Shown here one piece after another: positions 13,884-15,625 of a stretch of 64,000 nucleotides of DNA. The stretch lies in the NCBI GenBank assembly GCA_963921275.4, contig OZ001293.3, forward strand, positions 1,312,001-1,376,000, read 5' to 3'. The DNA comes from an uncultured Hormoscilla sp. (GTDB lineage: Bacteria > Cyanobacteriota > Cyanobacteriia > Cyanobacteriales > Desertifilaceae). The notes below the pieces were generated by a model. That model was not told the DNA's origin and did not search any database. It saw only the letters and a program-made list of their open reading frames with translations. The position numbers and the translations under genes are program-made. Position 1 is the first letter of the stretch, and the number at the start of each line of letters is the position of its first letter.

Positions 13884-15625
13884 GTGCGATTCGTTCTAGC
13901 CTAACGTGGTCAAACACGGAACGCTAGCCCGGTTTCATTAGCCGGGAACTCTGACCGCATGGGGGTTAAATTCCCCTCCCCCCAGGTACGGGGGTGACAC
14001 CGGTCCTCGGTGCTACGAAGCGACATCATCGTGGTGCTAAGCGAGGACTCAAATGTAGGATAACTGGCAGCCTAAGCCGGTGACGCCGCTAGGAAAGATA
14101 TCCAAGGTTAGAGCAGGCAAACATGTGCAAGCCTCGTTATAAGGAACCAGCGAAATAAGGCTATATGCGCTGGCCTAAAAAGGAAATGGTAGCTAGTATT
14201 AGTTTTAGACTCTGGCTAATATAGTACTCAAATAGCTCCCGGGGTATAGTGTGGACCTAAAGGTATCGCGAAATGTTGTTAGGGAACGAAGTAACCTCTC
14301 GTGTGCTGTCCATCAGGACAAGTTAGATGTTAAGCGCAAGCCACGGGGGGAGGGATGGCCCAAGAAGCGAATGCCCGGGGTAATTCCTGGGATAACATCT
14401 ACAGTAATGTAGATGATGCTGGGTAGCCAGCGCTGACGTGGGTCGGTGATACTAGGAAGCTGCTGGAATGAGTAATCCTAAAAAGCCACGGAACTAATCC
14501 AAAACGCAAGTGGAGGATAAGGTATGGATAACTGGTAAAACTGACTTGAAAATGGTGATACTAACGGTTATCAGAACAACCACTCGCTAAACCAGGAAAG
14601 GGAAGAAAAGACAGGCGGCAAGGGCTAACGGAAGTAATTCCTATTAAGTCTGTGCGATTCGTTCTAGCCTAACGTGGTCAAACACGGAACGCTAGCCCGG
14701 TTTCATTAGCCGGGAACTCTGACCGCATGGGGGTTAAATTCCCCTCCCCCCAGGTACGGGGGTGACACCGGTCCTCGGTGCTACGAAGCGACATCATCGT
14801 GGTGCTAAGCGAGGACTCAAATGTAGGATAACTGGCAGCCTAAGCCGGTGACGCCGCTAGGAAAGATATCCAAGGTTAGAGCAGGCAAACATGTGCAAGC
14901 CTCGTTATAAGGAACCAGCGAAATAAGGCTATATGCGCTGGCCTAAAAAGGAAATGGTAGCTAGTATTAGTTTTAGACTCTGGCTAATATAGTACTCAAA
15001 TAGCTCCCGGGGTATAGTGTGGACCTAAAGGTATCGCGAAATGTTGTTAGGGAACGAAGTAACCTCTCGTGTGCTGTCCATCAGGACAAGTTAGATGTTA
15101 AGCGCAAGCCACGGGGGGAGGGATGGCCCAAGAAGCGAATGCCCGGGGTAATTCCTGGGATAACATCTACAGTAATGTAGATGATGCTGGGTAGCCAGCG
15201 CTGACGTGGGTCGGTGATACTAGGAAGCTGCTGGAATGAGTAATCCTAAAAAGCCACGGAACTAATCCGAAACGCAAGTGGAGGATAAGGTATGGATAAC
15301 TGGTAAAACTGACTTGAAAATGGTGATACTAACGGTTATCAGAACAACCACTCGCTAAACCAGGAAAGGGAAGAAAAGACAGGCGGCAAGGGCTAACGGA
15401 AGTAATTCCTATTAAGTCTACCTATGAAAAGGGCCTAGTACCCAGTAGCCGGATGCGGTGAAAATCGCAAGTCCGGTTCCTCAAGGGAGGGTCGGGAAGC
15501 GATTCCCGGCTCGACCCCATCCACCTATGAAAAGGGCCTAGTACCCAGTAGCCGGATGCGGTGAAAATCGCAAGTCCGGTTCCTCAAGGGAGGGTCGGGA
15601 AGCGATTCCCGGCTCGACCCCATCC
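13884..15625 (+). mobile_element. Outer ORF-less group II intron (13884-14651 + 15523-15625) of a twintron
   Basis: GTGCG start; 768+103 = 871 nt, matching copy 1; its own domains V and VI lie at about 15548-15625. Confidence 0.93.
14652..15522 (+). mobile_element. Inner ORF-less group II intron (871 nt) nested in a near-identical intron
   Basis: Complete copy inserted in ATTAAGTCT|ACCTATG, a site that is uninterrupted in the other copies. Confidence 0.93.

Follow-up and report, generated by a model that had tools for sequence, protein, structure and literature searches.

A protein-less group II intron probably homed into its own domain IV in a cyanobacterial chromosome

Background

Homing of one intron into another has been described in Thermosynechococcus (PMC2882425), in Methanosarcina (PMC4424553, PMC2882425) and in a lycophyte mitochondrion (PMC7049729). 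We analyze here a locus at which an intron seems to have entered a copy of itself: an 871-nucleotide (nt) group II intron without an open reading frame (ORF), nested in a second copy of the same element on a cyanobacterial chromosome. The locus lies in a stretch of 64,000 nt (assembly GCA_963921275.4, contig OZ001293.3, positions 1,312,001-1,376,000) that we call the window; coordinates count from its start unless another contig is named.

In Thermosynechococcus elongatus, as reported by Mohr, Ghanem and Lambowitz (2010, PMC2882425), the ORF-less intron TeI3 (F3) sits in domain IV of the ORF-containing intron TeI4 (F1). The 'zombie' twintron cox1i1149g2 of Lycopodiaceae mitochondria is presented by Zumkeller, Gerke and Knoop (2020, PMC7049729) as an intron that jumped into its own domain IV. 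The nests of Methanosarcina acetivorans have been discussed in terms of a 'perpetual homing site' balanced by recombinational loss (PMC4424553), and a cyanobacterial twintron, Tery_4732, has been described in Trichodesmium erythraeum (Pfreundt and Hess 2015, PMC4649490). ORF-less introns were called rare in bacteria in a 2015 review (PMC4424553), and the largest prokaryote count given in a 2022 survey is 101, in Arthrospira platensis (PMC8919778).

Results

A complete intron inside a near-identical copy

The composite occupies positions 13884-15625, where a complete 871-nt intron (14652-15522) is inserted between positions 768 and 769 of a second copy in the same orientation, the boundaries of both being intact (Table 1). 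The order of segments is A-A-B-B, with two A segments of 768 nt (A1, 13884-14651; A2, 14652-15419) and two B segments of 103 nt (B1, 15420-15522; B2, 15523-15625). A1 and A2 differ at one of 768 positions (intron position 618, A at 14501 versus G at 15269; ATCCAAAACG/ATCCGAAACG) and B1 and B2 at none of 103, so that the rejoined halves of the outer copy give a full 871-nt intron identical to the inner one at 870 of 871 positions. The nest junctions read CCTATTAAGTCT/GTGCGATTCG and CGACCCCATCC/ACCTATGAAAAGG (here and below, a slash within a site marks the insertion point); they share no more with the outer flanks than AGTCT to the left (5 nt) and a single A to the right. This self-nested layout with its 768/769 split had been proposed in a preliminary description of the window and is confirmed by comparison of the repeats. 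The difference between outer and inner copies announced there amounts to exactly one base, and the polymorphism ascribed to a third, un-nested copy (copy 1) is also real: its sole change from the inner copy is G to A at intron position 176 (TGTAGAATAA/TGTAGGATAA). Copy 1 is flanked by a short ORF for a cupin/mannose-6-phosphate isomerase C-terminal domain (3572-3994, minus strand) and by a glutamate synthase gene (5549-10261, plus strand); it looks intergenic, since its joined flanks restore no long ORF (16 codons).

Nesting recurs at the same base

A search of the window's chromosome (the 6.88-Mb contig C1) by megablast at 95% identity or more returned 161 pieces of the family, 139 contiguous full-length copies and 22 partial ones. 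Ten of the 22 are the halves of five outer copies, every one split at 768/769, which brings the family to 144 copies. The five nested loci occupy four unrelated flanking contexts, the third and fifth in Table 1 sharing a repeated context. Such different flanks contradict descent of the five from a single segmental duplication. Because the identical split recurs at five loci, a chance origin is excluded. The targets that the composites themselves occupy are GAGTCT/A, GGGTCC/G, GTGTCT/G (twice) and AAGTTT/A. Exact string counts give 143 free internal sites, five A/inner junctions, six inner/B junctions and three head-to-tail junctions. None of the five A/inner junctions lies inside an inner copy in these genome-wide counts, and no nesting of the family in itself deeper than two levels was found. 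The earlier idea that each new copy offers a further target, allowing recursive nesting, thus holds for self-nesting, which the genome-wide search found at five loci; greater depth within the family was not seen in the same search.

The copies are nearly uniform: 63 of the 144 match the consensus, and the mean is 1.24 differences per copy. Each of the five nested outer copies carries private single-nucleotide polymorphisms (SNPs), none of which is shared between any two composites. Judged by this uniformity, the family is very young.

A target rule from 109 insertion contexts

When exactly 871 nt are removed, ORFs that extend for 60 codons or more to either side reappear at 23 (sense) and 26 (antisense) of the 139 contiguous copies, compared with 3 of 139 in each of three controls with boundaries shifted by one or two bases. 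After reduction of 136 insertion contexts to 109 non-redundant ones, the target logo consists of AACCTT(A) at -15 to -9, with a spacer of three unspecified bases after AACCTT, then GAGTCT at -6 to -1 and A at +1. The counts (n = 109) are G in 97 at -6, A in 67 and G in 36 at -5, G in 82 at -4, T in 86 at -3, C in 80 and T in 24 at -2, T in 95 at -1 and A in 82 at +1; G at -5 and T at -2, which are frequent alternatives, are exactly the ones that G-U wobble would permit. Complements of both logo blocks occur in the intron, and identify the exon-binding sites (EBS) that pair with the intron-binding sites (IBS) of the target: AAGGUU at positions 221-226 (EBS2) and AGACUC at 324-329 (EBS1), the latter in a hairpin loop. 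The EBS1 assignment is confirmed by two other families, in which the loop covaries with the flanks. In an 831-nt family, represented by 72 copies with 59 distinct flanks, this loop reads UGCACU and the flank consensus is AGTGCA/A; 92%-identical relatives in a genome of the same genus (G004) have the loop UCUAGA and flanks TTTAGG and TTTGGA.

G004 also supplies the uninterrupted site of the outer copy, ...AAGTGACTCT/AGAGCAATTT, or in longer form ...CCCAAGTGACTCT/AGAGCAATTTCTGG. Precise insertion at sequence-defined sites and an empty site in a relative are what a mobile intron leaves. The host gene, related to those for SPFH and MVP-shoulder-domain proteins, is intact in G004 as an ORF of 466 amino acids (aa). 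In the window it has suffered a 5-nt deletion 25 nt before the junction and deletions of about 320 and 360 nt, and by comparison with G004 it is a pseudogene in this genome; given these deletions, splicing at this locus would not rescue a protein. We considered whether the out-of-frame exon join reflects an intron boundary placed one base off, and rejected this: the frameshift is the 5-nt host deletion, and the genome-wide joins validate the boundaries.

The intron carries a target-like site in its own domain IV

The insertion point within the intron, ATTCCTATTAAGTCT/A, resembles the logo. EBS1 pairs with its AAGTCT at five of six positions, as had been claimed from the window alone, EBS2 pairs at four of six (one of them a wobble), and the +1 base is the correct A. 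Its log-odds score, 12.36 bits, exceeds that of 69 of the 109 occupied contexts and so the median occupied site, although such comparisons of occupied and free sites are partly circular, because the score matrix was built from occupied sites. On the chromosome, 362 positions score as high or higher, and 144 of these are the family's own internal sites; from the 218 others in 13.8 million positions, a random 871-nt sequence would hold a site this good on its sense strand in about 1.4% of cases.

We placed the site by aligning 12 ORF-less families of the genome and 21 sequence clusters of 3' regions. The closing helix of domain IV (567-573/783-789 and 557-559/790-792) shows compensatory changes (TA/CG/AT and CG/GC/TG), as does a small hairpin with a GNRA loop (739-742/765-768 and 747-750/755-758; AT/CG and GC/AT). 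Insertion took place at the 3' base of this hairpin; the 3' strand of the closing helix follows after 14 nt and domain V after 27 nt. In an ORF-containing relative of 2511 nt (L003), the homologous sequence TAATCTCTAGTAATCCT/ACC lies some 20 nt downstream of the stop codon for a 592-aa protein, which has RVT_N, RVT_1, GIIM and HNH domains (TIGR04416, 356 bits; cut-off 300); the nested copy therefore occupies the region in which full-length introns have their gene. The preliminary placement in a domain IV remnant is thus upheld by covariation across the 21 clusters and by alignment to this relative, while the distance to domain V, put there at about 25 nt, is corrected to 27 nt. At this position in domain IV the insert leaves the catalytic parts of the outer copy, domains I-III, V and VI, untouched.

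As to how the self-match arose, the corresponding position in sister families is AATCCT or AAGCCT, which pairs with GGGA or GGGC. In the G004 relatives of the 871-nt family, AAGTCT is already present in domain IV together with a different EBS1, for which reason the self-match looks like a by-product of a change of EBS1 target in this lineage and not a designed feature. Selection for the self-match is possible.

Identity of the ribozyme

Both copies begin with GTGCG (at 13884 and 14652), in agreement with the conserved group II 5' end GUGYG, and their 5' start GTGCGATTCG is common to 11 other intron families of the genome. The Rfam model of domains V and VI (RF00029) matches with 44.4 bits (cut-off 40) at 15444-15520, at 15547-15623 and, in copy 1, at 4480-4556 on the minus strand. 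The alignment shows the AGC triad, the GAAA loop and a bulged A in CUCGACCC. Rfam models of domains I-IV gave a single match, RF01999, below threshold at 22 bits (cut-off 36), which we did not use for classification. A minimum free energy fold of the whole 871 nt did not reproduce the canonical six-domain layout, which is why domain placement was taken from comparative analysis. No reverse transcriptase (RT) or maturase is encoded in domain IV: the longest ORF inside the 871-nt element has 53 aa.

The 3' end departs from the usual AY with a branch A 7-8 nt upstream: the element closes with ...CCCCAUCC (AUCC), and 9 nt separate its branch A from the end. The ends found in sister families are GACU, UAAU or GACC, and the introns of this lineage end two nucleotides beyond the end of the Rfam model. 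The atypical end is a peculiarity of the lineage; membership in group II stands, and the boundaries are exact. The composite is very probably a true twintron, both members of which are copies of a single ORF-less 871-nt intron of group IIB type.

Table 1. Features of the nested locus, of the single copy in the window and of the family's nested loci on the chromosome
Feature	Position	Strand	Remarks
5' exon, remnant of SPFH/MVP-shoulder-domain gene	13539-13883	+	decayed relative to the 466-aa ORF of the relative
IBS1 of outer insertion site, GAGTCT	13878-13883	+	3' exon begins with A at 15626
Outer intron, 5' part	13884-14651	+	positions 1-768; domains I-III and most of domain IV; consensus except private A at 618
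EBS2 AAGGTT	14104-14109 (outer), 14872-14877 (inner)	+	complementary to logo AACCTT, -15 to -10
EBS1 AGACTC	14207-14212 (outer), 14975-14980 (inner)	+	complementary to logo GAGTCT
Occupied internal homing site, outer copy	14646-14651	+	IBS1-like AAGTCT, cut after 14651; +1 A now at 15523
Inner intron, complete 871 nt	14652-15522	+	identical to family consensus; starts GTGCGATTCG; RF00029 at 15444-15520
Free internal homing site, inner copy	15414-15420	+	AAGTCT/A, cut after 15419
Inner domain V	15447-15480	+	starts AGC; GAAA loop
Outer intron, 3' part	15523-15625	+	positions 769-871; 3' strand of domain IV closing helix, domains V and VI
Outer domain V	15550-15583	+	branch A of domain VI at 15617
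3' exon, same decayed gene	15626-16127	+	92% identical to G004 protein
Copy 1, un-nested single 871-nt intron	4478-5348	-	private A at position 176
Nested locus 1 (this window)	C1 1325884-1327625		
Nested locus 2	C1 4741852-4743593		
Nested locus 3	C1 5180205-5181946		
Nested locus 4	C1 6029574-6031315		
Nested locus 5	C1 6410256-6411996		

Other arrangements of the family

The sixth inner/B junction comes from an A-B-B relic (C1:3454542-3455515), in which another domain V/VI unit of 103 nt comes after a complete copy; between the same flanks, a paralogous locus (C1:1028772-1029641) has just a plain copy. The relic is probably a former twintron that lost one A segment by recombination between its two A segments. 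Its two tandem domain V/VI units recall the architecture described for an alternatively splicing Clostridium tetani intron (PMC4424553).

Head-to-tail arrays of 871-nt copies, two at C1:824934-826675 and three at C1:5447656-5450268, occupy sites with the consensus target (such as AACCTTTCGGAGTCT/.../A). Their layout is consistent with a further insertion at the 5' junction of a copy already in place; IBS2 and IBS1 are retained there, and the +1 base becomes G, a base found at +1 in 16 of the 109 insertion contexts.

The nested pairs at C1:5180205-5181946 and 6410256-6411996 lie in opposite orientation at codon 473 of a 600-aa RT/maturase/endonuclease gene, itself part of a third, full-length group II intron, which makes three levels of nesting if the host intron is counted. 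Eleven further copies of this RT-gene context contain a single 871-nt insert, and the disrupted host intron therefore seems to have kept spreading. In G004, a relative of the 871-nt intron with 90-93% identity is split near position 320-330 by an intron in opposite orientation three times (C27:19760-21558, C13:91845-93643 and C2:87070-88868).

Discussion

Probable retrohoming into the intron's own domain IV

We regard site-specific retrohoming of the intron into its own domain IV, by two successive events at this locus and with a helper acting in trans, as the best explanation, with a probability of nearly nine in ten. It draws on the recurrence at five loci in four contexts, the logo from 109 contexts, the score of the internal site, its placement in domain IV and the empty site in G004, which together support the route first suggested for the window, homing into a target-like domain IV site. 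The intron would have inserted into its own copy because its target-reading loop matches a short sequence in its own dispensable domain.

In this mechanism, excised intron RNA would be mobilized in trans by the RT/maturase/endonuclease of related full-length introns of the same genome. As the target logo shows, the DNA target is recognized by pairing of EBS1 AGACUC with IBS1 GAGUCU and of EBS2 AAGGUU with IBS2 AACCUU, together with the +1 A; as established group II intron biology suggests, the RNA would then reverse-splice into the target and be copied into DNA. A first copy would thus have entered the SPFH-like gene at ...GAGTCT/A, and a second one ATTCCTATTAAGTCT/A in domain IV of the resident copy. 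Splicing may proceed with the inner intron first and the outer one after it, or the outer one may be removed in a single step. The genome has 75 matches to the maturase domain (GIIM), all candidate helpers, the 592-aa RT-X-HNH protein among them.

Several observations weigh against retrohoming or weaken its case. The 3' end is AUCC in place of the usual AY. At -6, the internal site has a mismatch, A being found there in just 9 of the 109 contexts, and its score suffers from the circularity described above. Five of 148 internal sites are filled, and we claim no enrichment. No ORF-containing parent with the family's domain IV 5' region was found among 66 of the 75 maturase loci. The sole RNA run listed holds 0.05 of the sampled words, and splicing and transcription of the twintron are putative. 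Finally, among the 20 pieces listed (there are 133 further ones), no contig bridges 14651/14652 with 31 nt on each side.

The lone parent candidate among the 66 loci, L006 (G000:C1:5240900-5243300, minus strand), was ruled out as another nested composite: an outer intron of ORF-less type contains an inner intron of full-length type, whose RT-deleted ORF of 303 aa keeps an N-terminal RT segment, the maturase domain and an HNH part and misses the RT core.

Alternative explanations

The composite of 1742 nt may have arrived ready-made: an outer RNA with its inner intron unspliced would have reverse-spliced as a unit into the SPFH-like gene, nesting having taken place elsewhere, once or a few times. 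Composite retromobility is listed by Mohr et al. (2010) as a possible twintron route (PMC2882425), all five composites occupy target-like sites, and the insert lies in domain IV, where full-length introns bear about 1.8 kb without loss of mobility. However, no SNP is common to any two composites, a comparison that rests on a mean of 1.24 differences per copy; the outer copy in the window has its private A at 618 while the inner copy is consensus; and for three of the five composites single copies exist in paralogous contexts, for example 11 single and two nested inserts at one site in an intron-encoded-protein gene. Arrival as a unit is therefore not favored over successive homing, and we consider it rather improbable.

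Far less probable is an artefact of assembly, in which the locus truly holds one 871-nt intron and repeat copies were mis-joined. The element is indeed a 144-copy repeat. Part of the stretch occurs in 20 of 24 public runs listed; we compared four of them (X1, X2, X5 and X6, as short-read contigs, which collapse the repeat and break at it) with a repeat-free stretch of 600 nt across the A/inner junction, and no contig among the pieces listed bridges 14651/14652. Nor does the junction 30-mer have any match in the other public genome contigs and metagenome contigs scanned. Against this, the chromosome is a single 6.88-Mb contig that resolves about 441 intron copies; the nested form stands at five loci with different flanks and private SNPs; a sixth locus has a relic in which one A segment is followed by two B segments; the break falls exactly at a sequence that fits the target logo; and mis-joined repeats are normally collapsed or tandem, not precisely nested.

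Rearrangement at the DNA level, by two local duplications or unequal recombination and without intron mobility, is the least credible: recombination between copies is seen in this genome (the A-B-B relic, the tandem arrays), but it would take a pair of independent duplications whose ends abut exactly, and this at one and the same base in five cases, deletion cannot turn tandem arrays into A-A-B-B, and the break coincides with a site complementary to the EBS.

The same data contain some further observations. Fifteen runs labelled as fifteen other organisms, from fifteen studies (X5-X19), hold 0.42-0.60 of the sampled words. X5 and X6 have one contig each with the whole 871-nt intron and the consensus G at 618, so that the family occurs nearly unchanged outside this assembly. 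A 32-mer of the free site found no locus among the matches listed in public genome contigs, from which the window's own genome is possibly excluded.

An exceptional intron load

In the cyanobacterial genome, which has 16 phycobiliprotein matches and a 6.88-Mb chromosome, an nhmmer search with a profile of domains V and VI detects 441 group II 3' units, and the 5' motif GTGCGAYTCGTT is present 442 times. All are on the chromosome; neither units nor motif were found on the six small contigs. Most units are ORF-less; at most 75 of about 441 introns have a maturase-domain match. The total is more than four times the highest count of the 2022 survey (101; PMC8919778). We found no bacterial genome with several hundred group II introns in the literature, where further papers could exist, and the chromosome may be the most intron-dense bacterial one described. 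It is the genome, more than the single locus, that gains in interest from this load.

Spliceosomal introns are presumed to descend from group II introns, whose route to high copy number is an open question. If retrohoming into domain IV is correct, the family manufactures its own targets: 144 of the 362 best-scoring sites of the chromosome lie inside its copies. The five nestings demonstrate its use of its own copies as landing sites, and the three tandem junctions indicate that an occupied site can be hit again. Identical halves in one transcript could also cross-splice, for instance to the A-B-B form with two domain V/VI units like those of the Clostridium tetani intron. We can only tentatively combine these elements into one picture, in which the family is currently active, a loop change made its own domain IV a target, the chromosome is the densest known and halves cross-splice; that all of this holds at once is doubtful. 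The genome would offer a natural system in which to measure the share of 'safe-haven' self-targeting in proliferation, the sequential splicing of nests and the helper behind an ORF-less burst. It also carries a warning for annotation: 'introns' of 1.7 kb in such genomes may be two identical elements.

Comparison with known systems

By analogy, the T. elongatus twintrons are the nearest bacterial precedent. As described, they share with the present case a cyanobacterial host, an inner ORF-less intron mobilized in trans, a fixed site in domain IV of a related intron, (near-)identical inner copies, an arrangement found at five loci and mobile-element insertion as a route of proliferation. In that account, however, the outer intron, a member of another family, contains an ORF, and insertion is between the first two ATGs of its protein gene. 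Here outer and inner copies belong to one ORF-less family (870 of 871 identical), and the site, in the 3' arm of domain IV, corresponds to a point some 20 nt downstream of the stop codon in the relative's gene. T. elongatus reportedly has 28 group II introns in all, against 144 copies of one family here.

The lycophyte intron cox1i1149g2 is, again by analogy, the nearest conceptual precedent. According to its description it too lacks a functional maturase, entered its own domain IV and belongs to a 'hypermobile' family with copies elsewhere in the genome. In contrast to the present bacterial case, with five recent events and virtually identical copies, it is organellar and is depicted as a single ancient event across a plant family, with an inner intron that has diverged and apparently does not splice.

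The M. acetivorans nests, as they are summarized, likewise arose by repeated site-specific homing into group II introns and underwent recombinational losses, to which the A-B-B relic may be compared. There, the targets are related intron ORFs, nests reach a depth of five and several intron types take part, whereas here a single ORF-less family uses its own non-coding domain IV to a depth of two. The Tery_4732 twintron has the same 5' consensus of the host intron, GUGCGAUUC (subgroup IIB2 according to PMC4649490). By that account, its two introns are different and both contain ORFs, the inner one lies in domain I, the host gene is conserved and functional, and experiments demonstrated sequential splicing.

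In the literature we found no bacterial ORF-less intron nested in an identical copy, though further papers could exist. The novelty lies in the combination of a bacterial protein-less family, an essentially identical nest, five recent events at one base and a target rule derived from 109 sites.

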